Source of the DNA: Octopus sinensis
Lineage: Eukaryota
Direction of reading: 5' to 3'
Assembly: GCF_006345805.1 (NCBI RefSeq)
Contig: NC_043010.1
Coordinates: forward strand, 35,774,001 to 35,838,000
Length of the DNA: 64,000 nt
Part shown: positions 3,326-63,811 of the stretch, piece after piece
Numbering within the stretch: the first letter of the stretch is position 1
How the letters are laid out: each line of letters opens with the position of its first letter
Program-made: the position numbers and the translations under genes
Notes under the pieces: model-generated
Seen by the model: only the letters and a program-made list of their open reading frames with translations
Databases searched by the model: none
What the model was told of the DNA's origin: nothing

Positions 3326-3473
3326 GATATGTAAGTGTATATGTATGTATGCATGTATGTATGTATGTATGTATGTATGTATGTATGTATGTATGTATGT
3401 ATGTATGAATGTATGCATGTGTGTATATATGTGTGTATATACACATATATATGTTTATATATATAATATAGTG

Positions 3474-7544: not shown

Positions 7545-8668
7545 TGGTTTCAAATCTGGGTACAAGGAGAGCAAATTAAAGAAGGAGGAGTTTAAATGGA
7601 TTACATCGAACTCAGTGCTCAGCTGGTACTTTATTTTCTCGGCCCCCAGCGAAATCGACCTCGGTGTAAATTGAACTCAGAAACGTAAAGAACTAGAAAG
7701 AAATACTGCTATGCATTTTGTCCGTCGCACTAACGTTTCTTATTTCTTTATTGCCCACAAGGGGCTAAACATAGAAGGGACAAACAACGACAGACAAAGG
7801 GATTAAGTCGATTACATCGACCCCAGTGCGTAACTGGTACTTAATTTATCGACCCCGAAAGGATGAAAGGCAAAGTCAACCTCGGCGGAATTTGAACTTA
7901 GAACGTAACGGCAGACGATATACCTATTTCTATTTCTTTACTACCCACAAGGGGCTAAACACAGAGAGGACAAACAAGGGCAGACAAACGGATTAAGTCG
8001 ATTATATCGACCCCAGTTCGTAACAGGTACTTATTAAATCGAAAGGCAAAGTCGACCTCGGCGGAATTTGAACTCAGAACGTAACGGCAAACGAAATACC
8101 GTTAAGTATTTCACCCGGCGTGCTAACGTTTCTGCCAGCTCGCCACCTTAACCCCTTACAAATAATCGTTTCTATTATAGGCACAAGGCCTGAAATTTGG
8201 GAGAGAGGGATAGTTGATTACAACTACCTCAGTACTCAACTGGTACTTAATTTAGCGACCCCGGAAGGATGAAAGGCAAAATCGACCTCGGCGGAATTTG
8301 AACTCAGAACGTTGCGGCAGACGAAATATCGCTAAGTATTTCACCCGGCGTGCTAACGATTCTGCTAGTTCACCACCGTAACCTGTTACAAATAATAACC
8401 AAATCTCCCTCGAATCACACCTGCGTTTTCAAGAAATGAAGGTAGCAATGGATAACAATAATATGTTCTTTCCTACTCTAGGCACAAGGCCCGAAATTTT
8501 GGGGGAGGGGGCCAGTCGATTAGATCGATCCCAGTACACAACTGGTACTTAATTTATCGATTCCGAAAGGATGAAAGGCAAAGTCGACCTCGGCGGAATT
8601 TGAACTCAGAACGTAAAGACAGACAAAACACCTGGCGTGCTAACGTTTCTGCCAGCTCGCCGCCTTAG
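7545..8668 (-). mobile_element. Cluster of about 5 SINE family D units, including a tail-A/tail-A dimer at 7735-8150
   Basis: Repeated reverse complement of TAAGGCGGCGAGCTGGCAGAAACGTTAGC..GTTCAAATTCCGCCGAGGTCGACTTTGCCTTTCATCCTTTCGGGGTCGAT. Confidence 0.85.
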
Positions 8669-13204: not shown

Positions 13205-14050
13205 TTCCAGATTAGCAATGAAAAGTTGAAATCAATTATTATTGGTGAGTCACAGAAGAAACAAGTCCAGTTGGAGGATGAAAATTCTGGAAATCGTGGA
13301 TTCGTTCACCTACTTGGGTTGTAGCATCGCCAATAATGGATAAGGCGGCGATCTGGTAGAAACGTTAGCACGCCGGGCGAGCCGTATTTCGTCTGCCGTT
13401 ACGTTCTAAGTTCAAATTCCGCCGAGGTCGACTTTGCCTTTCATCCTTTCGGGGTCGATTAAATAAGTACCAGTTACGCACTGGGGTCGATATAATCGAC
13501 TTAATCCGTTTGTCTGTCCTTGTTTGTCCCCCCTGTGTTTAGCCCCTTGTGGGTAGTAAAGAAATATAAATAATGGATATTCGGAAAGTGATGTGGAGAG
13601 AAGACTTAGCAAAGTTGCAGCTGTCTTCTAGCACCCGAAGCCTTTATGGTCTTAGCACTTCATTAAACAAGGCAACAAAAACTCCGTCTGTATACATCCA
13701 TTGTAATGTTGACAATACTTGTGAGACAAGGAAAAAGGCCAGCAGAATCTTTAGAACTAAGATGTCCACTATAGACGTTGCCGTAGGACCATACAAATAA
13801 TTTCTTAACCTAGCTACGTCATGAATAAAGAAGTCATGGGAAAAGCAAACTGTGCAACTTACGGCTTACCACCAGCGTAAGACGAGCGAAGATGCCGGAC
13901 CATGTGTTACGCGTACTCACGAAGAGATGAATGATAGCCTCTCTTGAGTGGAAGTTAAAGAATACACGTGGGAAGCAAAAGCGAACTTGCGAAGATCTGG
14001 TGGAGAACGTTAGAGGAGGACCTGGCAAATACAACCATGGTCTCGGAGCA
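13205..14050 (+). mobile_element. Decayed RTE-clade LINE 3' fragment, interrupted by a SINE
   Basis: Remnant peptides ILEIVDSFTYLGCSIANNG and LEWKLKNTRGKQKRTCEDLVENVR resemble the RTE ORF C-terminal region; multiple stops and frameshifts. Confidence 0.55.
13341..13568 (+). mobile_element. SINE family D (tail A) with target-site duplication
   Basis: Full head, core and tail; AATAATGGATA duplicated at 13332-13342 and 13569-13579. Confidence 0.9.
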
Positions 14051-20366: not shown

Positions 20367-20382
20367 ATAATAATAATAATAA

Positions 20383-25092: not shown

Positions 25093-25490
25093 TAAGGCGG
25101 CGAGCTGGCAGAAACGTTAGCACGCCGTGCGAAATGCTTCGCTGTATTTCGCCTGCCGTTACGTTCTGAGTTCAAATTCCGCCGAGGTCGACTTTGCCGT
25201 TCATCCTTTCGGGGTCGATTAAATAAGTACCAGTCACGCACTGGGGTCGATATAATCGACTTAATCCGTTTGTCTGTCCTTGTTTGTCCCCTCTGTGTTT
25301 AGCCCCTTGTGCGTAGTAAATAAATAGGTATTTCGTCCGTCATCACCTTCTCAGTTCAAATTCCACCGAGGTCGACTGTGCCTTCCATCTTCCAGAGTCG
25401 ATAAAATAAAAGGACCAGTTACGCACTGGGGTCTATGTAATCGACTAGCCCCACTCCTCCTCCAAAAGTTTCAGGTAGAAAGGATTATTA
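25093..25490 (+). mobile_element. Dimeric SINE D (head-core-tail A, then headless core-tail B) with a single TSD
   Basis: TTACAATTATTAA at 25083-25095 and 25491-25503 flanks both units. Confidence 0.85.
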
Positions 25491-31559: not shown

Positions 31560-32352
31560 CTGCTATACACACATGCGTACATACAACCTAGACCATTCTG
31601 CTATACACATATGCGTACATACAACCTAGACCATTCTGCTATACACACATGCGTACATACAACCTAGACCATTCTGCTATACACACATGCGTACATACAA
31701 CCTAGACCATTCTGCTATACACACATGCGTACATACAACCTAGACCATTCTGTTATACACACATGCGTACATACAACCTAGACTATTCTGTTATACACAC
31801 ATGCGTACATACAACCTAGACTATTCTGCTATACACACATGCGTACATACAACCTAGACCATTCTGCTATACACACATGCGTGCATACAACCTAGACCAT
31901 TCTGTTATACACACATGCGTGCATACAACCTAGACCATTCTGCTATACACACATGCGTGCATACAACCTAGACCATTCTGCTATACACACATGCGTGCAT
32001 ACAACCTAGACCATTCTGCTATACACACATGCGTACATACAACCTAGACCATTCTGTTATACACACATGCATACATACAACCTAGACCATTCTATTATAC
32101 ACACATGCATACATACAACCTAGACCATTCTGTTATACACACATGCGTGCATACAACCTAGACCATTCTGCTATACACACATGCGTGCATACAACCTAAA
32201 CCATTCTGCTATACACACATGCGTACATACAACCTAGACCATTCTGTTATACACACATGCGTACATACAACCTAGACCATTCTATTATACACACATGCAT
32301 ACATACAACCTAGACCATTCTGTTATACACACATGCGTACATACAACCTAGA
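31560..32352. repeat. 38-bp minisatellite, about 21 copies
   Basis: Unit CTGCTATACACACATGCGTACATACAACCTAGACCATT, head to tail with no spacers and few substitutions. Confidence 0.97.
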
Positions 32353-32669
32353 TCATGCGTCTAAATGGTAGTGATCCCATAACCAATACACTACAAAACT
32401 AGCTGACATATATGTTTATGTTTGTAGAAGAGACTTTTATCTATCTATGTTCATGTAATATATCATTTTGAAATGGAGATTTCGGTCTATTGATTTATGG
32501 TAATGGGTTTGATCCAATCTTTAGTCATGTTTATTTTAAGCTGTCAAATTAGTGTTGGAGGAAAGAAATACAAGATAATATTTTATGATTTCAAAATGGA
32601 ACGGGAAGCAACGAACATTACTCATAATTACAACAGATCGTTTGACCAAAGAAACGATGAAGATCGGTG

Positions 32670-33348: not shown

Positions 33349-33482
<134 letters not shown>

Positions 33483-34037
33483 GTATATGTATATGTTTAT
33501 GTATATAATGTATATATATATATATATGTGTGTGTGTATGTATGTGTATATATATTAGGAAACAAAGAAATAGAAAAGGAAAAGCTTGAAAAAGCTAGTA
33601 GCCCCTAGAAAAATTAATGACTAAGTATTCAGATTTTTGTTCACTATTGTTTGTACATGCTATTAAAAACTGTGTAGCGTGTTTCGATTCCCTTCCTGTA
33701 TACAGACAGTCAGGCAGATCGAAAATGCTTGTTTCATTCTTTTTTTTTTACTTTTTACTTTTTGTTTCTCTTTTTTTTTTGTAATCTTTGGGACTGTGAT
33801 TGCCATTTTGTTATATGGCGTAATTTTCATATATTTACTATTGATCTGGAAGTATTGCTCGGTTAATAATTTCGATCGATACGATATGTCGATAGATCAA
33901 TTTATTCATGGTGTGTCTTGCTTACGGTCGTTGGTAGCTGTTATTTTGTCTCGTTATTGTTTAATCGAAGCCCAGCTCTGACCGATCAGACACGCAATGA
34001 AAGACGTTCGAAGCGTGACCACCGTGACTTTTTTGTC

Positions 34038-34154
<117 letters not shown>

Positions 34155-34934
34155 TATAAATGTCACATTTACCAACGTGTTTCTTTTATTATTTACGACG
34201 GTAGTATGTCTGATTTGAAGGAAATTTGGATCGAGAAAACTCATGATCAAAAACTTTCCAGTCATGACTAGCCCGACTCTTGTCCGCACATCGTACCGTG
34301 GAAATATTATCCAGTAAGCTCTTGTCGAAGATAGTACGGTATAGTTTGAAGGCGATTTGGTTGGTATTTCTCGCAGTTCGATTGACTACCTGAAGTTTCA
34401 TTTGTTGGTTCGTGTCGAATGATGGTAATGGTGGTGTCTGGCCGTAAATGTTCTTGGTGCAAGACCTTGTGTTGTCATTGTTTGCTGTTGTCTATGTTGA
34501 GTCCCATGCCAGCTGTTATCAACCAGACAAATTATCAAAAGTCAAAACCAAGACAATCCCATTTTCTTCAATTCGGACAGCATGCATTTAGGGCAATATT
34601 ATCTAATTCGTGCTTCATTTTCAGGTATGCTAGTTTGATTCGAAAGACATATCTATAACTTCTAGCAGTGGTAAATGTTAATGTCAGTTTTGATAGCTAT
34701 CTTGGTGACATTGTTATTGTTTATCACCATATCAGTCCCTACCGATATATATGGTACTTAATGAATTTTATTTGTTTTTTTTCCATCTATTTTATTTTAT
34801 ATTCTAATTAGTTTTTAAAATTATTTATTGAATTGGCTTCTTATTGAAATTGTTTTTTCTCTTTCAGCTTCTATCCCTTCTCCCTATATCCGAGCATTTT
34901 GTCACTTCCCCCTTTATTTTTCAAGAACCCATCT

Positions 34935-35250: not shown

Positions 35251-35468
35251 TAAGGCGGCGAGCTGGCAGAAACGTTAGCACACCAGGCGAAATGCTTATT
35301 GGTATTCTGTCTGTCTTTACGTTCTGAGATCAAATTCCGCCGAAGTCGACTTTGCCTTTCTTCCTTTCGGGTTCGATAAATTAAGTACCAGTTGCGTACT
35401 GGAACCGATCTAATAGACTGGCCCTTGCCCCCAAAATTTCGTGTTTTGTGCCTAGAGTAGAAAAGAAT
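35251..35468 (+). mobile_element. SINE family D (tail B)
   Basis: Full head, core and tail match. Confidence 0.85.
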
Positions 35469-35755
35469 ATATTTCATTTGTTTTTAACAGGTTTTATCGC
35501 GGACTTATATTTTCATCTTTACTAATTTTCTTGTCATTTTCCCACAAATTTTGTTTAATTATATTTCTCTAAATCCTTTTTAATGTTTTTCACTGAATTC
35601 GCATCTTTTCACTGAAATTTTCTTGCTTCTACTCTTATTCTTACTAAGGTTCCTTATGGTTTATTTTCTCCACCTTCACTTTGCAAAATCTCACAGAGTA
35701 CTCTCTACCTCTCTGTCCCTCTTTCTCTCTTTTTACCTATGTATGTATGGATGGG

Positions 35756-43267: not shown

Positions 43268-43949
43268 TTAAACATTTGCCAGAAACTATTAAGTTTCAGC
43301 CATCGGATTGTCAAATAATAAATAAAATTATCAATAAACATCTTACATATAAAGAAATGTAAAAAGTTCATTGACTTTTTTTTTCTGACGTTAATTGTAA
43401 AGTTCATAAACGTTATAGGTATTTATTGAAATTTTAGCAAGTGACGGTAAGTTGTGTGTTGCTATGATTGTCTACACAACGTTTGGAACATGGGATAGAA
43501 AAAGAAGACGAAGAAAGGAAAGAAGGAAAAGAGAATGACGATGAAAGGAAAGCAACAGAAAGAAGAAAGAAAACAGAAATAGAGGTGTGATAAGATGAAT
43601 GCTCTCTGTGAAAAAATAACGCAAGGATGGTTATACAATAGTGTAGATTTATGAAAATATTAATATAATTTGAATAGTACTAAAAATATTTGAAAAGCTC
43701 GGTTAAGTTTTAAATGCAAGCCACGTACACTGCAATATAAAAGTAACAGTTATCAGTGATTTAAAGTTTACTAATTTGTGCGAGATTTAATATTGTACAA
43801 GATAACATTTATATCTATATCAGCAGATATAACCTCTAAATTCCTGTTCATTGCTGATGTGGAAGGGAATAGACATCTTTTTAGGAATACAAAAGCTACA
43901 AAGGTTACAAGTTTGTTTATATACTTCAACATATGCCTCTTACTCTCGT

Positions 43950-44322
43950 TTACTCTTTTACTTGTTTCAGTCATTTGACTGTGGCCATGCTGGAGCACCG
44001 CCTTCAGTCGAGCAAATCGTCCCGAGGACTTATTCTTTGTAAGCTTAGTACTTATTCTATCGGCCTCTTTTGTCGAACTGCTAAGTTACGGAGACGTAAA
44101 CACACCACCATCGGTTGTCAAGCGATGTTGGGGGGACAAACACAGACACACAAACATATACACACAATATATACATATATACGACGGGCTTCTTTCAGTT
44201 TCCGTCTACCAAATCCACTCACAAGGCTTTGGTCGGCCTGAGTCTATAGTAGAAGACACTTGCCCAAGGTGCCACGCAGTGGGATTAAACCCGGAACCAT
44301 GTGGTTGGTAAACAAGCTACTT
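43950..44322 (-). mobile_element. SINE family A
   Basis: Reverse-complement match to 2923-3325. Confidence 0.85.
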
Positions 44323-46516: not shown

Positions 46517-46885
46517 AAATCCTATGAACCCAGAAATTGAAAACAGAGGGTTACCCACTTGCAAACAAATGTGGTAACATATAACAATATTGAGCGAGGT
46601 TACCGTGGTTTTTTTCGTAGGCTTTTCTTCCCACGGATAAACCTTATCTGCTTCCCCCTTTACACCGTACACCTATTGATCGTTTTTTTTTCCTCTCCCC
46701 CTTTTCTCCTCTTTTTTCTTCCTTTTTTATTTTTATTTTCCTTTTTTTTTCCCCCTTTTACGATCCCTTTTGATCGAAAACCTACGCCTCTTCTTTTTTT
46801 TTGTCTTTTTTCATCCCACAAAAGAAAAGCTCTACCTTGTAATTTGTCTCATCTGTGTGCAGCCCTGTGTCGCCAATAAAGAAAC

Positions 46886-48910: not shown

Positions 48911-49537
48911 AGGGCGAATGGCACCGCGAGTGTCGCGTTGCTCTCAAGCAACTCTGCCGTCCTGGGTCGACCTTGAGTGACTTCATCACAACTAAAGCAT
49001 TCTCCACTTTCCTCTCTGGTCAATCTCTCAACTTCTTCAAGTATCACTTGAAGAGGAAAGTGAGAGTAGAGAGGCAAGTTTTGTCTAGTGAATGTTTTAA
49101 AAAAGATGGGTGAATGTAGCAAGGATGGCACGTATGAATGACGAAGCCACCTTGACTATGATTCTATGAACCGTAAAAATTAATACAGAGAGTTGCTTAT
49201 TTGCAAAAAAAAAAGAAATATAACATGTGACTTCATTGACCGAGGTTACCGTGGTCTTTTCCGTAGGCTTTTTTTTCCACGGGTAAACCTCACCTGTCCT
49301 CCATTTTACACTTCATATTGACATTTCTGTGATAACGATCCCTATTGATCAATTTTTTTCCTTTCCCTTTCCCCCCACTTTTTTTTTTATTTTATTCCCT
49401 CCTTTTTTGTCCTCTTTCTTTCCCTTTACGATCCCTTTTGATCGAAAACCAAACCCCCTTTTTTACCCCCAAAAGAAAAGCTCTACCTTGTAATTTGTCC
49501 TGTCTGTGTGCAGCCCTGTGTGGCTAATAAAGAAACA
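48911..49537 (+). mobile_element. Tx1 sister family, 5'-truncated and internally deleted copy within (TATC)n
   Basis: [15 protein letters not shown] and FLSGQSLNFFKYHLKRKVRVERQVLS match the ORF2 C-terminus at 55820-56896; 3' end CAGCCCTGTGTGGCTAATAAAGAAA; (TATC)n on both sides. Confidence 0.85.
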
Positions 49538-50300
49538 TATCTATCTATCTATCTACACATACACATGCACACACATACACACACACATACATATATACAT
49601 ATGCACATTGTACATTTTTGTGCTTGTGCCGCCCCAAGAGCTTGACAACTGGTGTTGGTCTGTTTATGTCCCCATAAACGATAAGTTCAGCACAACGGAC
49701 CGATAGGATAAGTATTAGATTTTAAAACAAAAACAACACAATCGGCACTAGGGCCGATTTGCTCGACTTAAAGCATTACAAGTCGGTACTCCAGCAAGGC
49801 TGCAGTTCAATGTCTGAAACAAGTAAACGATAAAAAATAAAAGACAGTCAACCAGAGCTTTCACGCGTTGATAGGAATATATCCGTTTTGTTTTGGACGT
49901 TTCGATTTTGCTACTCGTTATCTTGGGCAAGTGACGCTTATCACACCAGGGCTAACGAAGCCAATACTTGTGAGTGGAATTTGATAGACGGAAACTCTAC
50001 TGAAAACCACATCCAGACAAATGTACTCACACACACATACATGTATATGAGGTATAAAACTAATAGTAAATTCGAAGTCCTGCCGTTTGCTGGGTTCGTT
50101 AGACGGTATTTTTTCCTTTGAGTCAAAGTTTTATAAAGCAGTGGTTGATCTTGTGAGTTGAAGAAGGAGAAGAAGAAGAAGAAGAAGAAGAAGAAGAAGA
50201 AGAAGAGAAGAAGAAGAAGAAGAAGAAGAAGAAGAAAAAGCAGCAGCTGACGATGATAATGATACTGATGATGATGATGATAATAATAACAACAACAACA

Positions 50301-50539: not shown

Positions 50540-52291
50540 TATGATCCCACATTCTTGGATTATGGAATGTATGAACCTATTTGGTATTGCATCGAATGTT
50601 GAGCGATTGCTTGGAAAAAGTATGGCGTGTTGGAGGACGGATCTGACATACGGAAGAAGTTTAGGGACAGTAGAAATCAGGAGGGGCATCTTCCAAAGGG
50701 ACTGCTTGTCCCCACTGATCTTTGTACTGTGCTTGATACCACTAACACTGATTCTGAGGAAAGCAAAAGCTGGGTATGTATTTAAAAGCCGCCATTTGTT
50801 ATTCATGGATGACCTCAAACTTTATGGTAAAGATGAATCCCAAGTCAGTTCCCTCGTTGATACGGTGTATATTTTTCAGTGCTGATATCAGAATGGAGTT
50901 CGGGCTGAGAAAGTGTGATGTGTTAGCCTTGAAGAGAGGAAAAACCAAATGTATGGACGGCTAACGATACCGTTGGGGGAGGTTATGAAGCAGATAGAAG
51001 AGACGGGCTATAAGTGCTTGGGGATTTTGGAAATGGATAAATTGACGTAGAAAGAAATGACAGAAAAGTTTAAGGTGGAATACATGCGTAGACTGAGACT
51101 GATCCTTAAGTCGAAATTAAACGGACGGAATAAGATTGAAGTTATCAACACCTGGGCGGTTTCACTCCTTATATATGGAGCAGGGGTAATCGCATGGACA
51201 CGAACAGCTTAGACAGAAAGATAAGGAAGTTGCTAACTAGATAGGGACACTCCACCCAAAGAGTGACACAGACAGACTCTATGTACCAAACAAAAGAGGG
51301 GGAAGAGGACTTATTGGGTGCGAACACAGCATTAGAGTCGAAGAAAACAACATAGCATGGTATGTAAAAAATACCACAGAACCGTTATTATTAGAAGTAG
51401 GAAGGTCAGGCTTGTGTAGGATGAAAGATTGCCAAGATAAAGCACTATACAAGAAATTGAAAACGAAAGAAACTGAAAATAGGTGGGTAAATAAAGAATG
51501 CATGGACAATTTTATAGGGATGACAGAAAAAAAAAGATTGCTGTGAATGGCTAAAAGGGATTTAAAACCGGAAACGGAGGCTCTAATCTGTGCTGCCCAA
51601 TAACAAGCACTAAGAACAAACTACATAAAATACAGAATAGACAACACATCAGAAAGTGATAAGTGCAGAATTTGTGGACAAAATGGTGAAGCCGTATGGC
51701 ACATCACCAGCATATGTACGCCACTAGCCCAGAAGGAATATAAGAGACGCCACGACAATATAGCAAGGCTTGTCCATTGGGCACTTTGCAACAAGTATGG
51801 ACTTGACAGGAAAAAAATTGGTACAACAATAAACTCGAAGGCATCATCAAAAATGATAATGCATTTATGATTCAGTGCGACTATGAGATAGAGAATAGGA
51901 AGCCAGACAGAGTCTTAATTGAGAAAGAAAGCATACTATGCTGGATCATAGATGTAACATGCTCAGCTGACAACAAGTTATGCGATAAGAGAAAAACAAG
52001 TCGATAGATATGACAGGTTAGCTTGGGATGTTAAGCAGTTGTGGTCGATGAAAAAGGTAGCAGTAGTACCAATTATTGTCGGAGCCTTGAGAACAGTGAG
52101 CAAAAATCTCGAGAAGTACGTGGAACAAATAGGGGCTGCAATAAGGGTGTAGCACTTGCAGAAAACAGCACTGCTTGAAACCGCTCGAAAACTCCAGAAG
52201 GTGCTCGAAAAAATAAGGTGTTACCTTAGTTTACTGGTAGTGAATAGCTGACACCGTAGTACATCTCCAGCGTTAAAAGCTGTGCAAAGGC
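50540..52291 (+). mobile_element. R4/Dong-type non-LTR element family 1, 5'-truncated and decayed
   Basis: RT motifs IPHSWI, RRGIFQRDCLSP, HLLFMDDLKLY; CRICG..H..C, RHDN and KPD..D of an RLE; many stops and frameshifts; (AAT)n/(GAT)n on the 5' side. Confidence 0.9.
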
Positions 52292-52294
52292 AAT

Positions 52295-52677
52295 TTGAGG
52301 GATGGGGCTAGTCGATTACATCGACCCAATTTTCACTGGTACTTAATTTATCGACCCCGAAAGGATGAAAAGTAAAGTCGACCTCGGCGGAATTTGAACT
52401 CAAAACGCCAAAACATGAAATTTGACGTAGCGACAGACGAAATACCTATTTCTTTACAACCCACAAGAGGCTAAACACAGAGAGGACAAACAAGGACAGA
52501 CAAACGGATTAAGTCGATTATATCGACCCCAGTGCGTAACTGGTACTTAATTTATCGACCCCGAAGGAATGAATGGCAAAGTCGACCTCGGCGGAATTTG
52601 AACTCAGAATGTAGCGGCAGACGAAATACGGCTACGCATTTCGCCCGGCGTGCTAACGATTCTGCCAGCTAGCCGCC

Positions 52678-52680
<3 letters not shown>
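52295..52680 (-). mobile_element. Dimeric SINE D (tail A unit plus headless tail B unit)
   Basis: Same internal junction (AAATA|GGTATTTCGTC) as 25093-25490. Confidence 0.8.
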
Positions 52681-53429: not shown

Positions 53430-54366
53430 TTTAGTGATGAGGAAACCTTTCATGTTTCACGGAAACTGAGCGAACACAATATGAGAATCTGGGGATCAGA
53501 ACCATCCCCCCCCCCACGTAACTAGAGAAGTTCAGCGAGATAGTCCCAAAGCGAATGTCTGGTGTGGGATTATGTGCAATTGAATTATTGGTCCATTTTT
53601 CTTCAACGAGAGATCAATTACTGCAAATGTCTAGCTTGACCTTGTGAATGAATATGTGGCTCCACAACTCCAGGACCTTCAACCGACCATCATTTCCCAG
53701 CAAGATGGTGTCCCACCACATTGGAGATTGTATGTTCGTGAAATAAGGCGTCGAGCTGGCAGAAACGTTAGCACGCCGGGCGAAATGTATAGCCGTATTA
53801 TGCCTGCCGTTACGTTCTGAGTTCAAATTCCGCCGAGGTCCACTTTGCCTTTCATCCTTTCGGGGTCGATAAATTAAGTACCAGTTACGCACTGGGGTCG
53901 ATGTAATCGACTTAATCCTTTTGTCTGTCTTTGTTTGTCCCCTCTGTGTTTAGCCCCTTGTGGGTAGTAAAAAAATAGATTGCATGTTCGTGAATTCCTT
54001 AATCAAATATTTCCAGACCGTTGGATTGGAAGGGGAGGACCAATTACGTGGCCACCACGTTCATCACGTTCTATGGGGCTATGTTAAAGATATCGTGTAT
54101 CAAACAAAGATACGGGGCATTACTGAACTAAAATAACAGATTCGATCGCAAACATTGATAAGGCTATGTTACAGCGAACATGGCAAGAAATCGAGTACCG
54201 TTTTGATATGGATCGTGCGACTAATGGTGCCCATATAGAGGTGTATAAAATGAAATAAAAAAAAACTTTGAAAACCACTGAGTACGATAGAATAAGTCTG
54301 ATTAAGATATTTTATCAATTGCCTCTGTGATAAATTTTTTAAATTGTAAAAAGACTTTATGGACTG
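53430..54366 (+). pseudogene. rosa/DD41D-like transposase remnant interrupted by a SINE
   Basis: [64 protein letters not shown]. Confidence 0.85.
53743..53976 (+). mobile_element. SINE family D (tail A) with 18-bp TSD
   Basis: AGATTGYATGTTCGTGAA at 53725-53742 and 53977-53994; the transposase frame resumes after it. Confidence 0.92.
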
Positions 54367-54696
54367 TATGTATGTATGTATGTATGTATGTATGTATGTA
54401 TGTATGTATGTATGTATGTATGTATGTATGTATGTATGTACATAAGGAGAATTCACAAAAAAAAACCAAAAGACGAAGACAGGTGACGTAGACAACAAAC
54501 AGATGTATTAGTAAAACGTTAGGGAAGTGAAAGAGTCTTTAACGTTTCGAGTCTACGCTCTTCCACAGAAAGGAACACAGAGAGAAACAAGGAGAGAAAA
54601 TAAAGAGAGAGAGATACACAAATAAACACGCACACACACACAAATATATATTGGCATATACTAGTTTTTACAATATTGGTTTTTTGAAACCAATAA

Positions 54697-54834
54697 TTTA
54701 GAAACTTTGTTCTTGCTAGCGAGAATTCTATGTTGTTGACCTCGAGAGAATCTTTTTGGATGGAAAAAAGAACTCATAAATTCTTATGACATCACCGACA
54801 TACAATTCTTGCTGGTAAGAATAAAGTTTCTAAA
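54697..54834. repeat. Imperfect foldback/palindrome (MITE-like)
   Basis: TTTAGAAACTTTGTTCTTGCTAGCGAGAATT.. pairs with ..AATTCTTGCTGGTAAGAATAAAGTTTCTAAA. Confidence 0.75.
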
Positions 54835-55509
54835 AGGAATTGTAATATTTGTACGATTACATTGGTCCCCAGCTAGAACGTTTTCCATGTGTACAGGAGA
54901 TGTGGGTTCAAATCTCCCCCGTTGCTTTCATTAATTTTTTTTTGTTTTTCTATTCAAAGGGTTTTTAATCCAATATTTGCTCATATTTATTGTTTTATTT
55001 GCTTCGAGTTTCACCGCTCAAAAAAAAAAAAAAAAAATTCACGTTCTCTCGAAATTTCTAATTTTCTTACAATATTTATATAATTGTTTTATTACTATAC
55101 TCGTACCTTCTAATCCATTGCAATACTTCTACCCACGTGATCTGTCGAATATTCCACTTTGTCATCTTTAAAAATGATTACATTGCATTGGGCTGAACAA
55201 CAAGGACAATATTTGTCAGGTGACTTTAACCATTGCTGCTTTATCTGTATTCTTTTCCTTCAATGCTGAGATTTTCATTGTTGTCGTGGTCGTCGTTGCC
55301 GTTGTTGTTGTTGTTGTAGTTTGCTGTCCGCATTCTGGGTGTTATTGTTCTTGTTGATTTTTTTCTTTTCGTCTTTCTTCGTGTTGTTGTTGTTACTGTT
55401 GTCTGGCGGCTGGAATGATAATGACAGGCCTTTGAAGCAAGTTGTACAACTGGATAAATATCTCCTTTTCTTCGTTTTTATGAAGATGATGATGATGATG
55501 ATGATGGTG

Positions 55510-55544
<35 letters not shown>

Positions 55545-55819
55545 CAATTCTTTTTTATTGGCCACAAGGGCTGACACGCATGATTACATAAAGGGACAAG
55601 ACAGGACGAAAGGTTACAAAGGGTTTTGTCCGTTTGTTAAAAAATCCGTGTAAAAATACATTAACAATAATTATAATAAAACAATGAAAACTCCCAAAAG
55701 GGGGAGACGTTTCGAAAGGTTCCTGGTGGAAAAACCCTACAAAAGCCAACGGGAGCCTGGTCAAAAAAAGGGGTGTAGAGAGTCCCCTTTTTTTCTCCTT
55801 TTGTATTACCTTTTTGAAA

Positions 55820-56830
55820 TCACAGGCGAAACCTGAGAACTGGTCCATTTATACAGGCCAGTCTCGCACAATTCACCCACCTTTCATAAAACTTGCTATC
55901 GGACAGCACTTTCCTCTCTAACCTCATTTTCCTTTTCAAGTGAAACTTGAAAAAGTTGATGAGGCCTTGACCAAAGAGGAAAGTGTCTGACTTTAGCCCT
56001 TTCAAACGAGTCCACCACACCACCTCTTTCGCCACAGCCACTAGGCACAAGAAAACGGCCTCGCCCTCCTTGTTAAAGGAGGTCGGTGGGGCAATCTTCA
56101 CTATGGATTCGGCCGATAGTCGGATCCGTCCTACACGTGACAGTAGCTGTTCGACATAAACCCATATTTCAGCAATACTCGGGCACTGGACGAGTGCGTG
56201 CAGGACGGTTTCGTCGTCCTGGCAACACCTCGGGCAGGCCCGGCTGACGGCACTTCCGTGCCGGTAGAGTTTATCTCGAACAGGCAGAGCCCCTCGGTAG
56301 CACTGCCAGGCGAGAGACCTCTGGAAATTATCCATCGGCCCCGGCCCGAAAGTCCTCCCGAACAGACCGCACAGTTCGTCATCTTCAACGCCTAGAGTTT
56401 CCCCGAGAACGTCGTCGCATTTTTCCTCCACTAACCCTCTATAGAACGCTAGAGTGGAGCTGTAACCGATCGCATTGCCCGCCTGACGGAGGGCGGAGAG
56501 GGCTTGACGGCACTCGAGGTGCCAAGCGCCCTTTCTCGGTCTACGTTTGATCCAGGTCTGCAGCTCCGTCAAAGAGACGAGCTGCGGAAAATCGCGTCTG
56601 ACAAAAGACGACCACACCTGTTCACCGTCTAGGAAGCGCTTGAGATGCCGCAGCCTGAGCGCATGTCCGCGCAACAGCAACCACGGCATTCCAAGGCCTC
56701 CGTTCAGCGGTCGTTGACAGCAGATGGATCGCCTGACCAGTGGCACCTGACCCTTCCACAAAAAGTCGAAGAGCAGGCGTACCAGCTTGGCCAACCAGCG
56801 GTCGGGACAAGGGACGACGGTCAAGCGACG
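55820..56830 (-). CDS. Tx1 ORF2 C-terminal part (after frameshift), with CCHC zinc finger
   Basis: FLWKG, GGLGMP, CPRCCQDDETVLHALVQC. Confidence 0.88.
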   Translation of the reverse strand, partial: RRLTVVPCPDRWLAKLVRLLFDFLWKGQVPLVRRSICCQRPLNGGLGMPWLLLRGHALRLRHLKRFLDGEQVWSSFVRRDFPQLVSLTELQTWIKRRPRKGAWHLECRQALSALRQAGNAIGYSSTLAFYRGLVEEKCDDVLGETLGVEDDELCGLFGRTFGPGPMDNFQRSLAWQCYRGALPVRDKLYRHGSAVSRACPRCCQDDETVLHALVQCPSIAEIWVYVEQLLSRVGRIRLSAESIVKIAPPTSFNKEGEAVFLCLVAVAKEVVWWTRLKGLKSDTFLFGQGLINFFKFHLKRKMRLERKVLSDSKFYERWVNCARLACINGPVLRFRL

Positions 56831-59247
56831 ACGGATGCGATGTACGCATTCGCCACCTCCGCTCGACCTTTCAGGGACAGCTTCCTCTCGGCCCATTTCT
56901 GGGTGAGACGTGCCACCCTGCTCGTCACCTCTTCCCAGTTCTTATCCACCTGGAGGTCCGGACCGAACCAGACCCCGAGCAGTTTAACGGGTCCGTCTGT
57001 CCAGCGCCCTACGACGCTGTTGGACGGCATGGGCTTGCCTCTCCAGGTGCCCAGTTGCAAGCCCACAGACTTTTCCGCGTTAATCTTTGCCCCTGTCACC
57101 GCTTCGTACTGGTTTAGCGTCTCGCCAATCAGGCCAATGTGCCTGTGACTCGACACCACCACGGTGACGTCGTCGGCATAAGCAGACACGCTGTTTCCTC
57201 CTCCTAGATCGCGCGGGATACCCCTCAAAGCCTCCAACTTGCGCAGTAATGGCTCGAGAGTCAAAATGTACAAGAGGGAGGAGAGAGGGCATCCTTGGCG
57301 GACCGAACGCGAGATGTCGAACGGTTCCGAAAGGTGACCGTTCACCCGTATCACCGAGCAGATGTTGCTGTATAAAGCAGCGATCCACCCGCGGAAGACT
57401 GGACCGAAGCCGGCTGCCCTGAGGACAGCTGCCAGGTACCGATGGTCGACCCTATCGAAGGCTTTACTCTGATCCAAGTTGATCAAAGCCCCACCCGCGC
57501 CAGCGTCGTTACCCACCCTCTCTACGATGTAGCGCATGAGATGGAGGTTGTCGTGTATCGACCTGGTCGGCACGGCGCATGTCTGCGTCTTGCCGACCAG
57601 CTTGTCCACGACAAGCGCCAATCTCTTGGCTAGCACCTTGGCCAAAATCTTCAACTCTGCATTGAGCAGAGTGATGGGCCGGAAATTTCCTATAACGTCC
57701 CCCTTGTTTGGGTCCTTCTTTAGCAAAGCCACCACCCCTCGACAGACAAAAGCAGGAATTCTCCCGTTTTGCTGCCAGTTGCAGTAGACGTTTGCCAACA
57801 GGTCCGCAAACAAGTCTGGCATTGAAAAGTAAAGCTCGTAGGGCAGACCATCCAAACCCGGCGATCTACCTCTCGTGCAACTCTTCATCGCTTCCTGTAC
57901 TTCCCAGGCAGATATCGGTCCTTCGCAGCACTCTGCCTCGCTGTCCGAGAGTTGCGGCAGGCCGTCCAGGTACACACCGAAGTCTGTACCGTTGGTGTCC
58001 GTTCCACCGCTCGTCCCAAACAGTTGAGCAAAGTGCCGCTGAAGCACCGTACACATCTGCTTCGGTTCGGTAACCTCGCGCCCGTTCTGGTCCACCAAAG
58101 ACCGAATGGTTGCTCTGTTGCCTCGCTTCGCCTCCGCCACGCGGGCCCATCGAGCGGCTCTAGTCCCCTCCCCGCTTAGCGAACGTGCCTTAGCTCTGAC
58201 AACGCAGCCTTCGTGTTTGGCGTCGAAGTGTTGGTCGAGGGCCAACCTTGCCGCCAACACGTCGGTCGCGATGCCAGTGTCAAGAGCCTCGTCTAGTTTC
58301 TTAACTAAATCCCGCTCTCTCTTCCTACGTTCAATAGCTAGAGTCTTACTATACCTAATCGACTCTACTCTAATTGCTCTCTTGAGGGCAAACCACCAGT
58401 TGTTGTTGATGATTGTCCCCGTGAGCGCCCGCTTAACTAGTAAACTAATCCGGTCTCTGTAAGCTTTGCACGCCGTTAATGACGCGTTCAGCTTCCAGTA
58501 GCCGGGTCCCTGTCTATGTAGCCTATCTAAGTCGACCGTACAGATCACTAATTTGTGGTCCGTATATTCGACTAGGTGGAATTGTGGACACCCTACGCTG
58601 TCCTTATCCGCTGGCCTACAAAACACTCTATCTAAGTACGATCTAGACGACCCGATGCGGTTTGTCCAAGTCCACATTGGCACATTCGGGTTGTCTAGTC
58701 GAAACCTGTCGGACAGCTGAAAGCGGCCGAGTAGGTTGGCGAGGCTCTTGCACCCTCCCCCTCTCCTATCAGACGCTCCCCTGCCCACCCGATCGAAACG
58801 TTCGTCTAAGACAGCGTTCCAATCCCCAACTAGCACTAGAGTGCGTGACGTTCCCAGGAAAACTTCCAGACGTTTGAAATAATCCGACTGCCCTGCTCTT
58901 GTTGGAGCGTAGGCAGCCAGCAGTCTGAAAGCACCGCCGTCACTACCGTCCACGTCGAGGACCACCAACATACCTTCCGGATCCAAGAAGACTGTCCTTA
59001 TTTTCAGGTCCAGGCCCTTCCGAAACAACACCGCAGTACCACCACCGCCCGCTCCCGGCCGACACGGAGATAGAAATATCTCGTATCCGCCGAAAAGGGC
59101 TGCGAGTCCCTGCGGGTCGGAGAGCCTGGTTTCACTGATGGCTGCTACATCCACATCATGAAACCTCAGGTCGTTTAACAGGTGACCCTGTTTCCAAGGT
59201 GACCCGAGGCCTCTCACATTCAAGCAACCGATTCTAAGATTTGCCAT
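56821..59247 (-). CDS. Tx1 ORF2: APE endonuclease and reverse transcriptase
   Basis: APE motifs LNVRGL, SETR, GDWNA, YLDRVF, TDHK; RT motifs SPGLDGL, FRPITLLN, DQSKAFDRVDH, RQGCPLS, YADD. Confidence 0.96.
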   Translation of the reverse strand: MANLRIGCLNVRGLGSPWKQGHLLNDLRFHDVDVAAISETRLSDPQGLAALFGGYEIFLSPCRPGAGGGGTAVLFRKGLDLKIRTVFLDPEGMLVVLDVDGSDGGAFRLLAAYAPTRAGQSDYFKRLEVFLGTSRTLVLVGDWNAVLDERFDRVGRGASDRRGGGCKSLANLLGRFQLSDRFRLDNPNVPMWTWTNRIGSSRSYLDRVFCRPADKDSVGCPQFHLVEYTDHKLVICTVDLDRLHRQGPGYWKLNASLTACKAYRDRISLLVKRALTGTIINNNWWFALKRAIRVESIRYSKTLAIERRKRERDLVKKLDEALDTGIATDVLAARLALDQHFDAKHEGCVVRAKARSLSGEGTRAARWARVAEAKRGNRATIRSLVDQNGREVTEPKQMCTVLQRHFAQLFGTSGGTDTNGTDFGVYLDGLPQLSDSEAECCEGPISAWEVQEAMKSCTRGRSPGLDGLPYELYFSMPDLFADLLANVYCNWQQNGRIPAFVCRGVVALLKKDPNKGDVIGNFRPITLLNAELKILAKVLAKRLALVVDKLVGKTQTCAVPTRSIHDNLHLMRYIVERVGNDAGAGGALINLDQSKAFDRVDHRYLAAVLRAAGFGPVFRGWIAALYSNICSVIRVNGHLSEPFDISRSVRQGCPLSSLLYILTLEPLLRKLEALRGIPRDLGGGNSVSAYADDVTVVVSSHRHIGLIGETLNQYEAVTGAKINAEKSVGLQLGTWRGKPMPSNSVVGRWTDGPVKLLGVWFGPDLQVDKNWEEVTSRVARLTQKWAERKLSLKGRAEVANAYIASVVA

Positions 59248-59682
59248 GTCTCAAAAGTAGGGGGAAAAAAGGAGAAAAAAGGCTCTACTTACTGTTGTTG
59301 GTGGTGGGGGTGGCTCCCTTGTGCTTTTGCACGGGTGCTTCCACAATGTTTTTATAAAGTTTCTTCGAGAAACTTTTCCCTAGCGATCCCACATCGTTAG
59401 GGAATATTTGTTTGATTTCATCATATGTTTTTGCATTTATTTTTATTGTGAGAATGTGTGCTGGTGGGTGGTGTTTGTGTTGGTATGATGAAATCGGTTA
59501 TATTTGTACTAGTTTTGTTTTTTAAGTACTCCACTAGTTTTTGGTTCTTTGTGTTTATTGATGTAATTGTGTCTGTGTGTGTTTGTGTGTGTGGCAGTGG
59601 CAGTAGTGGTGTCGAAAGTGTTGTTGTTGTTGTTGTTGTGAGTGTGTGTTGTTGTTGTTGTTGTTGTTGATGTTGGGAAGCA

Positions 59683-61089
59683 CTATTTGTTCGTGCTTCC
59701 CCTGTAAATCTTTTTGTTTTTTCCTCCTTTTCTCTTTGGAGGCACTATACTCCATTCTCCTTTGTTGGAATCAGAGCTCGCACAATCCGACTCTTCATCC
59801 GGCAAAGGAATGGTTGAGGGGTCTGCTTCAGTAGCAGGACGAAAGGTTTTTGGTTCCGCCGGTATCGGTGGTGCCGCTGCTCCTGTTGCTGTTGATGTTG
59901 CTGCAGTTGATTTTCGAGGTACTGGTGTCGGTGTTGGTTTGGTGGTGGTTGTTGTTGTTCGTCTTGGTGCTGGCGTTGGTGATGGTGTTGGTGGTGTGGC
60001 AGCCTTTGGTGTTTCTTGCTGTTTTTGTTGTTTCTGTTGTTGTGGCTTGTGTTGTTGTTGTTGTTGCTGCTGCCTCTTGCTGAAAGCCTCCATCCTCTTT
60101 TTGTGAATGGGACAGTCCCTCTTTAAGTGGCTTTCGCTGCTGCAGAGGAAACATTTTGGCTTTCGCCCCTCCACAGCAACGTTTAGCCTGGTGCCGTCCG
60201 GCAAACTTACGAAATCAGGGACTTTACTGATATTCTCTTGCTGAATTTGCGCAAGAAGCAGCACTCCCATCCCCAACCAGTTTTTCGCCCTCACTCTCCT
60301 GACATCTAGAATGGTGGTAGTGTCCTCTATATCATAGAGGACAGCTTCCACCAGCCATGACATATCTAGCTCAGGGGGGGCGAGGTCGATTTTTATTTTT
60401 GTTACTCTTCGCCCGAGGTGGGTCGGAACTAGTAACAAATTCTCAGTTTGCAAGGGCGAAATGGCGTTCGCCCTTGCAAGCTCCTCTGTTGGGAAGCGAA
60501 CCTCCACGGTTCCAAAACGCTTCCCCTTGGTTACGTAGCTATTTTGGGCCCAAATGGGCTTTAGAGCTATCTCCAACTGTTGGGGTGTGGCATTTGTCAT
60601 TCTTTTTAGTTTTCTGTCGAAAACTTTGTATATTATTGTTTTCTTGTTGGTGCTTTCAATCACCTCTTGTGGAGTATTGAGGAAGATGCCATTGCCATCC
60701 TTCCTCAACAACTCCTTCGCTCTTTTCACATCTTCTAGAGTTATCTTAACTTCCTCCGAAATTTGCTTCGCAGCAGAAGCAAAATTGTTGGAAGTTTTTT
60801 CTTTTTTCTCCGTGTCAATGTTTGTAATGATTTTTGTAATTGTTTTTCCTTCCTCCTCCTTCCGTACCAAAGCATTGGGTGAAGGCAGAGGGGGAAAATC
60901 GAGAATTACGTCGAACGCGACGTCCTGGCTTGCATTCTCCTTTTGAACGGAGCGCGTGCTCTCCGGTTCGGAAGGAGGATCTTTGTTGCCTTTTAAGGCG
61001 TGAAGTGGGTGTTTTGGACGAATTGTGTGTGTTTGCGGAGGGAATGTATCTTGAAGGAAGGAACAGCCAACTGTTCGCTTCATAGCCAT
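59683..61089 (-). CDS. Tx1 ORF1: nucleic-acid-binding protein with zinc knuckle
   Basis: 468 aa; CFLCSSESHLKRDC (CX2CX4HX4C); Q/T/P-rich tail; lies upstream of ORF2. Confidence 0.9.
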   Translation of the reverse strand: MAMKRTVGCSFLQDTFPPQTHTIRPKHPLHALKGNKDPPSEPESTRSVQKENASQDVAFDVILDFPPLPSPNALVRKEEEGKTITKIITNIDTEKKEKTSNNFASAAKQISEEVKITLEDVKRAKELLRKDGNGIFLNTPQEVIESTNKKTIIYKVFDRKLKRMTNATPQQLEIALKPIWAQNSYVTKGKRFGTVEVRFPTEELARANAISPLQTENLLLVPTHLGRRVTKIKIDLAPPELDMSWLVEAVLYDIEDTTTILDVRRVRAKNWLGMGVLLLAQIQQENISKVPDFVSLPDGTRLNVAVEGRKPKCFLCSSESHLKRDCPIHKKRMEAFSKRQQQQQQQHKPQQQKQQKQQETPKAATPPTPSPTPAPRRTTTTTTKPTPTPVPRKSTAATSTATGAAAPPIPAEPKTFRPATEADPSTIPLPDEESDCASSDSNKGEWSIVPPKRKGGKNKKIYRGSTNK

Positions 61090-61315
61090 GTTTTTTTTGT
61101 AATATTCAAAAAGTTTAAAATGTCAAATTTTCAAAGTTTCAAAACGTAATTTCACCCCGAATGGGCAAAATTTCGCCCAACCGACGAGCTCCGCAAGAAG
61201 CCGGTCGGTTTGGCTACAAAAATATTAAAAAATATTCAAACTTATCAATAGATTTCCAGTGAAATTGGTGTCAAATTCACGGAGCTTTTTCAGACACGTC
61301 CATCGGCGTCGGAAG

Positions 61316-61366
<51 letters not shown>

Positions 61367-61368
<2 letters not shown>

Positions 61369-61496
61369 CATCCTACGCAAAACACTTTCAATACAGTAAC
61401 CATAAGAGCATCAAACACAATCATAGCACATACCCAAAGCACAAAGAGCTGTGCTCGGTAGTGAAGTGAACGCACGTTATAAAAATAAAACTACTG
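61367..61496 (+). mobile_element. R4/Dong-type family 2, extreme 3' fragment within (AAT)n
   Basis: HILRKTLSIQ* plus UTR; matches 63638-63767. Confidence 0.8.
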
Positions 61497-61508
61497 AATA
61501 ATAATAAT

Positions 61509-62074
61509 CCATTCTTTTATTAGCTACAAGGACTCACATACAATAACATTAAAGGACATGCAACAAGATAAAGACAAAACCGGGACCATACAATGGGTTT
61601 TCCGCGTGCCGATAATATAAAAAACAATTAAAATTGAACAGATTAAAACTCCCAATAGGGGAGGCGCTTTAAGGTCCTCGTGGAAAACTCTACAAAAGTC
61701 ACGGGCGCCTGATCAACAGGGCAAGAGCCCTTCTCCTTTAGTTCCCTTTTTTTTTACAGGTGCACGCTCACACTGGCCATTCTTCCAACATTCGCCCACC
61801 TTTCAACAAACTTGCTACAAGGCAACCATTCCCTCTTATTAAACTTCCTTTTCAAGTAAAACTTGAAAAAGTTGATGAGGGCTTGGCCAAAGAGAAAAGT
61901 GTCTACCTTTAGCCCTTTCAAACGGGTCCACCATACTACCTCTTTCGCTACAGCCACTAGAAAAATAAAAATTGCCTGCTCCTCCCAGCTAAAAGAGGGC
62001 GGCAGGGCAATCCTCACAATAGATTCTGCTGATAGCCAGATCCGCCCTACGCGCAACAGCAGGTGTTCGGCATA
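61509..62074 (-). mobile_element. Second, diverged 5'-truncated Tx1 copy ending at (ATT)n
   Basis: YAEHLLLRVGRIWLSAESIV..AVAKEVVWWTRLKGLK matches the ORF2 C-terminus; homologous 3' UTR. Confidence 0.9.
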
Positions 62075-62295
62075 TATCTTTTCTATTATAGGTACAAAGC
62101 TTGAAATTTTGGTGGGGAGAGGTTCCAGTCGATTAGATTGATCCCAGTGTTTCACTGGTACTTAATTTATCGACCCCGAAAGGATAAAAGGCAAAGTCGA
62201 CCTCGGCGGAATTTGAACTGAGAACATAGCACCGGGCGAAATGCTGCTAAGCATTTCGTCTGGCGTGCAAACGATTCTGCCAGATCACTGCCTTA
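62075..62295 (-). mobile_element. SINE family D (tail B) fused directly to the 5' truncation point of the Tx1 copy
   Basis: Minus strand reads ..TATAATAGAAAAGATA|TATGCCGAACACCTG.. Confidence 0.85.
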
Positions 62296-62396
62296 ACAAA
62301 AACAACAACAACAACAACAACAACAATGATAATAAATTCTTTTAATAATAGTAATAATAATTAATTCCCTTCTTTTTATAGGTGCACGCTCAGAAT

Positions 62397-62446
<50 letters not shown>

Positions 62447-62490
62447 TAATAATAATAATAATAATAATAATGATAATAATAATAATAATA

Positions 62491-63764
62491 AAATTTCTGA
62501 CAACAGAAAATGATGACCGTCAAAACAAAGGGCCGGACGTTGTTCCTCCTGTCCCGCAAATAAAACCAAAAAGGCATAAATGGACACGTGAGGAATATAT
62601 TTCAATCCTACACGCTTACTTTACAGCAGTGCTCTACCCAAAGAACGAAAACACAATAACATATACATATAAAATATGGAAGAAAAATAACATAAATAAA
62701 GACTTGGATACAGCAATGAACCCTAATAAACTAGCTAACATACGAAGATATATTCTCAACGCAAAAAAAATCACAAATAGAAATAGAACATTTAAAAGAA
62801 AATATACATCAGGAAAATGTAGATAGAAGCCACACAACAATGCCAAATAATATAAACACTGAGATAGTAAAACACGAAGACAAACGTAACATTTCCAACA
62901 AAAACGAAGTAAACAAAAACCAACAAACCCAGACCATACGTAAAGCAGCAAACCAAAACACGACGGACAAACACACGCATGAGAAAGAAAGCGACACAAA
63001 TCTAAAACCTGGAAACAACGAATGATTATGATACTATAAGAAGTAGAATAATCAAAGAACTGAAAACCACCGACCACACCTCCCAAAAATCAAAATAGAC
63101 AAAAAAACAACATCAATAATAAATAACATAAACCTAGCCGTCACGGAACTAATAGCCACTGAAACAAATAGCAATATCACTGAGCTAAATGACATAGTAT
63201 ATGCAGCAGCCACTGCAGCCACAAAAGAAGCTTGATACTCACTCAAACCCATCCAAACAGAAGTAACACCACCCAAACAAACCCTGTGGATAAATAACAA
63301 AAAAAATTTAAAAAATGAGAAAAAATCTGTCGATTCTTAACGAAATTAGTAGACAATCAACGCTACTAAGCAACAAAAAGAAAACAAAAATACTGTGCAA
63401 ATACAACATCACAGAAAAAGATTTACCTGAGATAAAAGAAAAGCTAAAGCAAGATATCCTTGCTAAAGCACAAAGGATCCGCCGGTATGAGAAACTCCAG
63501 CGTTTCTTTAAACAGAACAAACAGTTCAACTCCAACCCCAAAAAGTTCTGATGAAAAAATATTCAGACAAATACATAACAAAAACACCAAGACTTACAAA
63601 CACATAACATACAGAAAATTGCACTACTAGGCACTGCCCACATCCTACGCAAAAGACTTTCAATACAGTAACCATCAGAATATCACAACAAAACACAGCA
63701 CATACCCAAGGCACACAGTGCTGCGCTCGGTGGTGAAGTGAAAGCACGATATAAAAAAAACCCA

Positions 63765-63767
<3 letters not shown>
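62491..63767 (+). mobile_element. R4/Dong-type family 2, internally deleted copy within (AAT)n
   Basis: N-terminal RHKWTREEYISILHAYF and AKAQRIRRYEK..KQFNSNPKKF joined near 63550 to C-terminal IQKIALLGTAHILRK; (AAT)n on both sides. Confidence 0.8.

Positions 63768-63811
<44 letters not shown>

Follow-up and report, generated by a model that had tools for sequence, protein, structure and literature searches.

An abundant octopus SINE shares its 3' end with Tx1-type LINEs and is probably mobilised by a sister lineage of its Tx1 neighbour

The window analysed here, a stretch of 64,000 nt from Octopus sinensis, carries both copies of a SINE and a full-length Tx1-type LINE (Table 1), and raises the question of whether the SINE depends on such a LINE for its mobilisation. 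Shared tails are a standard mark of SINE-LINE partnerships. A preliminary description of the window had proposed a partnership of this kind, quoting a Tx1 end and a SINE tail that were both located exactly where it had placed them. Working labels are used for the LINE families (Tx1a to Tx1g) and the SINE tails (A, B and C). Genome-wide counts refer to the 2.72-Gb genome, and the random genomic sample comprises 1.064 Mb, the window included.

Table 1. Positions of the SINE copies and Tx1-type LINE features within the window.
Feature	Position	Strand	Pfam
Full SINE, tail A, 18-bp target duplication	53744..53977	+	
Full SINE, tail A, 11-bp target duplication	13341..13566	+	
Tail-A dimer: full unit, then unit from SINE position 52	7741..8150	-	
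Tail-A SINE, then position-52 unit with tail-B-like end	25093..25480	+	
Tail-A SINE, then partial unit	52290..52680	-	
SINE with tail B	8162..8380	-	
Further tail-B SINEs	8460-8667, 20378-20597, 62076-62295	-	
Further tail-B SINE	35251-35470	+	
Full-length Tx1-type LINE, family Tx1a, ORF2 frameshifted in this copy	55545..61316	-	
Tx1a ORF1, frame of 479 aa between stops	59683..61122	-	
Tx1a ORF2, endonuclease and reverse transcriptase part	56821..59250	-	PF03372, PF00078
Tx1a ORF2 C-terminal part, zf-RVT, other frame	55820..56941	-	PF13966
Tx1a 3' terminus resembling tail A	55546..55613	-	
Tx1a hairpin with CUUGU loop	55560-55572	-	
(ATT)n tract after Tx1a 3' end	55510..55544	-	
(ATT)n tract before Tx1a 5' end	61317..61366	-	
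5'-truncated Tx1b copy, ends in (ATCT)n	49005..49545	+	
Another Tx1b-group end	46519-46885		
5'-truncated Tx1c copy, ends in (ATT)n	61497..62074	-	

The SINE is about 230 nt long and has some of the properties of a tRNA-derived (SINE2) element, being short, non-coding, dispersed, present in high copy number and flanked by target duplications. A pattern made up of the exact terminal 27 bases of tail A, seven free bases and then one non-G matches 73,198 genomic sites, and the SINE is among the commonest repeats of the genome. Its head contains A-like and B-like boxes, as judged by consensus. No tRNA was matched in the head in Rfam or by ARAGORN, and no U1 or U2 snRNA in Rfam at E values up to 10, so that the snRNA relationship of a SINEU element is not seen. 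As a check for the central domains of the CORE, Deu/Nin, V, Meta and Ceph superfamilies, three short motifs of the SINE body were compared with published alignments; they were absent from the readable part of the supplements (gapped alignments) of two publications (PMC4758252, PMC4824008). SINE A copies diverge from their consensus by 6.6% (n=94, random sample), copies with tail B by 16% and those with tail C by 18%.

Two tail-A copies had been described as carrying target duplications in non-microsatellite DNA, and both do: that at 53743 has a duplication of 18 bp with one mismatch (53725-53742 and 53977-53994), and that at 13341 one of 11 bp (13332-13342 and 13569-13579). More generally, duplications of 10-22 bp were found in 31 of 71 head-bearing SINE A copies. 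Another SINE unit follows 45 of 105 tail-A ends, and the units nested in such dimers begin at SINE position 52 or at about position 18. In the dimer at 7741..8150, the second tail (a C variant, and the one originally quoted) runs into a stretch of SINE that begins at about position 18. A seven-unit head-to-tail array, made up of one full unit and six units from position 52, was also recovered (L144, joined block B141, 33372-34519), with a single duplication enclosing all seven. Another abundant repeat of the window is composite (872-1368, 2922-3327, 43940-44322 and many more); its 3' part resembles the last hairpin of the SINE body, and a GT-rich stretch within it looks like the beginning of tail A, which raises the alignment background.

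The LINE of the window has the structure of the L1 group, with an ORF1 and an ORF2 that carries an APE endonuclease, a reverse transcriptase (RT) and a C-terminal zinc motif. The closest solved relative of its ORF2 is human L1 ORF2p (E 1e-44; R2, 1e-22), and among 65 ORF2 relatives the sole cephalopod-named entry is an Argonauta protein. A CX2CX4HX4C knuckle is visible by eye in the ORF1, for which no Pfam match was obtained in the window copy; sister-family ORF1s match zf-CCHC. The family has many intact frames. These LINEs are called Tx1-type on the basis of architecture, the RT tree being one without named Tx1 references. The use of repeats or microsatellites as targets, a trait of the Tx1 clade, is also seen: Tx1a and Tx1c lie in (ATT)n and Tx1b in (ATCT)n, Tx1f is often found within one other repeat, and subfamily g1 within the SINE. 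Since the LINE lies on the minus strand, nt 55555-55613 represent its 3' terminus. This terminus, followed by (ATT)n, is present in 30 of 30 fetched copies (window copy included) and so belongs to the element, which rules out an inserted SINE fragment as its source. Three loci (L004, L014, L030) contain head-to-tail Tx1a arrays joined by (ATT)n.

The two 3' ends quoted in the preliminary description agree at 45 of 65 columns, and an equal score is obtained with 3 of 2000 dinucleotide shuffles. When consensus sequences are compared, tail A and Tx1a agree at 36 of 54 positions (score 30). Among 400 shuffles, 3 attain this score, as do 13 of 6000 80-mers drawn at random from the genome; a full tiling has 114 such tiles among 32,972 unmasked ones, most of them representing a low-complexity stretch in another repeat. 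The similarity to Tx1a is thus above chance, and is modest when taken alone.

Closer relatives of tail A were found among sister families of this LINE. A codon pattern for the ORF2 C-terminus matched 5,672 genomic places, and 47 of 50 sampled C-termini lead to a related terminal motif (30 of the first 30, then 17 of a further 20 that had been chosen for variant codons). One of the variant-codon picks (L226) and one locus of the random sample (L244) are LINE ends without a microsatellite, and searches seeded from these two led to Tx1e and Tx1f; for Tx1b and Tx1c, 30 loci each were fetched for their 3' ends. The tail in its LINE-type form was sought with a further pattern, which matched 75 places, 30 of which were fetched. 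None of the 30 has a SINE body, 11 have ORF2 upstream, 11 have ORF1 only and 8 have neither. One of them seeded the family Tx1g, of which 28 of 30 loci reach a tail-A-like end, 20 of those 28 with an ORF2 C-terminus upstream. None of the 28 ends continues into a microsatellite tail typical of Tx1a or Tx1b, and candidate duplications of 11-25 bp flank 14 of them. One Tx1g copy (L395) retains an open ORF2 of 1128 aa (EN-RT-zf-RVT) together with a zf-CCHC ORF1.

Tail-A variants agree with Tx1g or its subfamilies at 41-44 of 48 positions, both sequences ending at distance 0 on the same terminal base, a similarity not reached by any of 400 shuffles (z 12-20). Scores against the overall tail-A consensus are 63 for Tx1g, 59 for e, 58 for f, 53 for b, 33 for c and 30 for a. 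Tail A is also matched by Tx1e (43/52), Tx1f (39/46) and Tx1b (39/50, the value for the end at 49005..49545, which is better than that of Tx1a), and more than one LINE family may therefore serve it, to judge from these alignments. The proposal that the SINE shares its tail with a Tx1-type LINE is hence supported, although the window's own Tx1a is not the closest match. Two outcomes that could have overturned it were looked for. A better match in another LINE clade was not seen in two ends that are R4/Dong-like by their motifs (scores 12-16) or in one that is CR1-like by its motif (18), and the similarity, rather than vanishing at consensus level, becomes stronger. Among the sampled families, no LINE carries tail A over its full 65 nt: for the initial ~17 bases no LINE source was found, and two homopolymer indels set the SINE tail apart from Tx1g. 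The true tail donor may for these reasons be a sister absent from the sample.

In a quickly searched RT tree of 44 rows, all Tx1 working families fall in one clade (support 99). Families a, b, c and d, together with two database proteins, form a microsatellite group (91) that is separate from e/f/g (99). Divergence from consensus is 1.6% for Tx1a, 5.0% for b, 8.5% for c, 7.0% for e, 4.2% for f and 6.7% for g, these LINE values being biased towards young ages because the copies were top hits. Endonuclease identity among e, f and g is 66-87% between families or subfamilies, one g2 endonuclease (L392) lying on the strand opposite its g2 end and possibly belonging to another copy.

A CUUGU loop on a stem of 3-4 bp is common to SINE tails A, B and C and to families a, c, f and g, while the hairpins of Tx1b and Tx1e have variant loops. 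In a loop-centred alignment of 19 rows, from which two mis-picked references and one duplicate had been dropped beforehand, 92.1% of 76 cells pair and both sides have changed in three of the four pairs; pairing falls to 21-50% in slid controls. The covariation value is 0.618, compared with 0.237 for shuffled and at most 0.177 for slid controls, where the shuffle control is not to be read as a probability, the rows being related and hand-picked on the loop. Folding with ViennaRNA gives the tail-A hairpin a pair probability of only 0.18-0.54 and places Tx1b and Tx1e in other registers; overall, folding support for the stem is good in B, C, a and c, and moderate in A, f and g. When SINE copies are compared with one another, conservation of the hairpin hardly exceeds that of the flanking sequence (6.0% vs 7.7% and 4.7%).

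Three features of a stringent SINE-LINE pair are found together in tail A and Tx1g, namely a co-terminal shared end, a stem-loop with compensatory changes, and an overlapping activity and insertion signature. Ages overlap (6.6% for SINE A, 6.7% for Tx1g, the latter subject to the LINE bias), duplications are of similar length (10-22 vs 11-25 bp), and a target site within the SINE head is common to both. The best reading, with a probability of about 0.8, is that a LINE of the e/f/g type drives the tail-A SINE through its tail. The partner is likely to be Tx1g, a sister lineage without a microsatellite tail, which makes the window's Tx1a a probable cousin. The idea of a Tx1-dependent SINE is retained here in amended form, and an earlier suggestion that another Tx1 subfamily might be involved has gained substance from Tx1g. 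The SINE would have captured its tail from a Tx1g-like RNA, by template switch or recombination. A Tx1g-type ORF2p would recognise the predicted CUUGU hairpin, and target-primed reverse transcription would begin at a fixed point past it, just after the A-rich end. Tx1a would share with tail A only an older, lineage-wide hairpin and A-rich end. The occurrence of ORF1 without ORF2 at 11 of the 30 non-SINE loci with this end is as expected if the tail acts in trans. ORF1-only elements that end in the LINE tail belong to several families (L332, L333, L335, L339, L342, L348, L351, L357, L358, L360; L347:1550-2690; L254:5920-6800).

The SINE variants differ in the sequences they enter. Within the first 100 of the 73,198 tail-A ends (counted by eye), a G follows 14 of 14 TAA-variant and 1 of 17 CAA-variant ends. 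One stem base of the SINE foretells the first target bases, T preceding GGTA and C preceding AGAAA. Patterns built to exclude the dimer unit matched 1,728 GGTA(not T) sites and 1,114 AGAAA(not C) sites; by eye, in the first 100 sites each, 95 of the former carry the T variant and 97 of the latter the C variant. Loci matching a pattern of tail A plus ATT, 30 of 30 of which had SINE bodies, were left out of the target counts as biased. Among the matches listed, TATA follows 16 of 62 TAG-variant tail-A ends, and many of these ends are followed by (TA)n, a third target class. In the LINEs, AGAA starts are seen in 7 of 12 young Tx1g1/g2 copies, two of them within the SINE head, and in 0 of 16 older g3/g4 copies.

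Duplications were compared with these motifs at 40 loci, of which 15 and 15 are head-bearing copies of the two variants. The motif lies inside the duplication in 8/15 and 8/15, indicating that the bases were already in the target before insertion. The other 14 of the 30 have no motif-containing duplication: none was found by script in 7/15 and 6/15, and a duplication only after the motif occurs in 0 and 1. In the dimers of each variant, the next unit likewise begins with that variant's bases, GGTA or AGAAA. Given that the same variant-linked bases occur inside duplications and in dimers, pairing between RNA and target is likely, and the earlier suggestion that the RNA 3' end has a role in targeting has gained support from the difference in target starts between variants. 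In mechanistic terms, read-through beyond the parent copy would supply a few initial bases that pair with the nicked DNA and so choose the site. With dimer parents, the longest complement to the read-through would be the SINE itself, which would explain its self-nesting. An account in which read-through RNA pairs with the nicked strand is slightly favoured here over one based on the endonuclease only.

The strongest competitor accepts the same partnership, and holds that endonuclease preferences of LINE subfamilies (for GGTA, AGAAA and TATA) set the targets of the SINE variants over time. It is a possibility to be kept in view, at clearly less than even odds. The Tx1L endonuclease alone nicks its target specifically, according to the part of the source consulted (PMC1950540), the endonucleases of e, f and g differ to the extent given above, and subfamily g2 combines the C variant with an AGAA start, as does SINE variant A2. 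Against protein-set targets, g1 copies with a T-variant tail start with AGAA in 3 of 7 cases, whereas the T-variant SINE starts with GGTA, and the ages of the SINE variants overlap (5.1-5.9%). No LINE subfamily that prefers GGTA was found in the sample, GGT occurring at 1 of 28 g ends; this fits RNA steering, and equally an unsampled partner. The endonuclease hairpin loop, located by a motif, separates the two subclades and does not separate (ATT)n from (ATCT)n families, in which it is nearly identical. As a comparison of sequences, this loop pattern would fit a coarse protein preference refined by RNA. In the portion of PMC1950540 available, flexibility of the loop matters more than its sequence.

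A fuller version of the RNA-pairing account is put forward tentatively, its chances being judged somewhat below even. Stringent recognition of the CUUGU hairpin would serve both the SINE and the ORF1-only elements, and targets would be chosen largely by read-through RNA bases. Target preference would then perhaps come from the previous landing site and not from the protein. The 'specificity' of the sister families for (ATT)n and (ATCT)n might be the same self-perpetuating loop.

An improbable alternative is a SINE copied loosely by any LINE enzyme (Dong/R4, RTE or CR1), with a tail that would be either a relic of capture or a signal for pol III or stability. SINE copies end on the terminal base of Tx1g without poly(A), and the duplication lengths and the in-SINE target site that they have in common with Tx1g and Tx1g1 also speak against loose copying, as do the unmatched Dong-like and CR1-like ends. 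In its favour, some variants have a polyadenylation-like hexamer in the A-rich end, and tails B and C were amplified although no LINE twin was found for them: matches outside the SINE core were mostly decayed SINEs by eye (7/106 and 27/124).

The stem of tail B was met in a LINE-type context in one ORF1-only element (L347), the exact 23-mer occurring only at that place. As had been proposed, tail B weakly resembles the Tx1a end (23/30, co-terminal; 0/400 shuffles, 7/6000 genomic sequences), and its similarity to Tx1a and Tx1c is weak and above chance; the match of tail C to Tx1a is not significant. The reported tendency of tail B to lie in AAT tracts was likewise borne out, (ATT)n following directly after 10 of 31 tail-B, 9 of 18 tail-C and 3 of 105 tail-A ends, compared with 90 of 20,000 random 22-mers. 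A Tx1-type partner is plausible for tail B; for tail C only the hairpin loop points to one. These older tails may have been served by Tx1a or by one of its (ATT)n-associated relatives. A CR1-like end that had been suggested by eye as partner of tails B and C gave no significant match (78/400 and 41/400 shuffles), and the Dong-like ends were likewise rejected.

As a partner for tail A, the (ATT)n family of the window itself, Tx1a, is most improbable. It is a young family with many intact frames, its end shares the loop and its match exceeds chance as described above, yet it scores 30 where Tx1g scores 63, and the match is not co-terminal. ATT repeats follow all 30 Tx1a copies and very few tail-A ends, and Tx1a belongs to the separate subclade and is younger (1.6% vs 6.6%, with LINE copies taken from top hits). 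Chance or low complexity, which could be argued for Tx1a alone from the number of tiles scoring equally, is refuted for Tx1g by the z values, and the five tiles scoring at least 52 are ends of this LINE lineage, an ORF1-only derivative and headless tail-A pieces (by eye). The tail-A SINE is best regarded as a dependant of the e/f/g lineage.

Several known systems resemble the proposed pair in part. A SINE-LINE pairing in the Tx1 clade is described for crocodilian SINEU and Tx1-Mar LINEs (Kojima 2015, PMC4494074), which, in the sections available, also have target sites and ages in common and insert into another repeat. The link there is a target preference, SINEU having snRNA-derived heads and poly(A), and no Repbase LINE is said in those sections to resemble the 3' half of SINEU-1; in octopus the SINE and the LINE are linked by near-identical 3' ends that lack poly(A). 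Stringent pairs in the L1 clade are ZmSINE2/3 with LINE1-1_ZM and SINEX-3_CR with L1-1_CR (PMC3472496, PMC3747384). As far as the consulted parts of these papers go, they likewise involve an L1-group LINE, about 45-50 conserved terminal bases and a hairpin with a conserved loop and compensatory stem changes, and they differ in coming from plants (monocots) and an alga and in having another loop and ends made of repeats or poly(A). Table 1 of PMC3747384, within the text accessed, lists no Tx1 partner and no mollusc. For UnaSINE/UnaL2 and other CR1, L2 and RTE pairs, the LINE RT is taken to read the shared tail (PMC3747384, in part); those pairs belong to other clades and have mobilisation assays.

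UnaSINE/UnaL2-type pairs have short or no duplications. Octopus SINEs named OK, OR1 and OR2 were reportedly described by Ohshima and Okada in 1994, and the present SINE may be one of these, which are likely to be from the same taxon. An annotation of O. vulgaris counts L1-Tx1 families and leaves SINEs mostly unclassified, the word 'partner' being absent from the text accessed (PMC13282606). What is already known is therefore a Tx1-SINE partnership without a shared tail, and hairpin L1-clade pairs in monocots and an alga. No shared-tail pair for a Tx1-type LINE was found in the literature covered, subscription journals and Repbase lying outside it; Repbase, the 1994 paper or some supplements may already hold one. 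In SART1Bm and R1Bm, RNA 3' bases are proposed to anneal to the nicked strand and set initiation, where pairing, from the passages seen, sharpens accuracy at one endonuclease-defined site (PMC7265360); in octopus, pairing would make the preferred site differ from one subfamily to another across the whole genome. HAL1 (half-L1) elements are also ORF1-only non-autonomous derivatives, of mammalian L1, and no shared hairpin tail is described for them in the sections available (PMC5753468).

If the partnership is real, stringent 3' recognition within the L1 group would be known in an animal as well as in plants and algae, and a likely driver could be named for what is one of the commonest repeats of this genome. 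The variant-specific target starts offer a natural experiment on the shares of endonuclease and RNA 3' end in 'sequence-specific' retrotransposons and, should RNA steering prove strong, would be relevant to retrotransposon-based insertion tools.

Other repeats were noted alongside these elements. Tx1f copies often occur at fixed spots of one other repeat (3' flanks of L302, L308, L310, L313, L318, L322-L326, L329 and L330), and one ORF1-only family does the same (L335 group). The end of this repeat looks Helitron-like by its motif, and either targeted insertion or carriage by the repeat could account for the association. Two plus-strand segments of the window (61367-61495 and 63639-63779) are presumably R4/Dong-like LINE 3' ends in (TAA)n, judging from a C-terminal motif; Tx1-type elements that share these tracts have the opposite orientation, and the two segments are accompanied by a decayed frame (62365-63600). 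The window also has a Mariner-type transposase fragment (16758-17588, plus strand; PF01359) and a 38-bp minisatellite of 21 copies with 96% matches (31559-32356). The random sample includes an LTR-type element with protease, RT and integrase matches and a cluster of C2H2 zinc-finger frames (L245:1271-6155; L246-L249).
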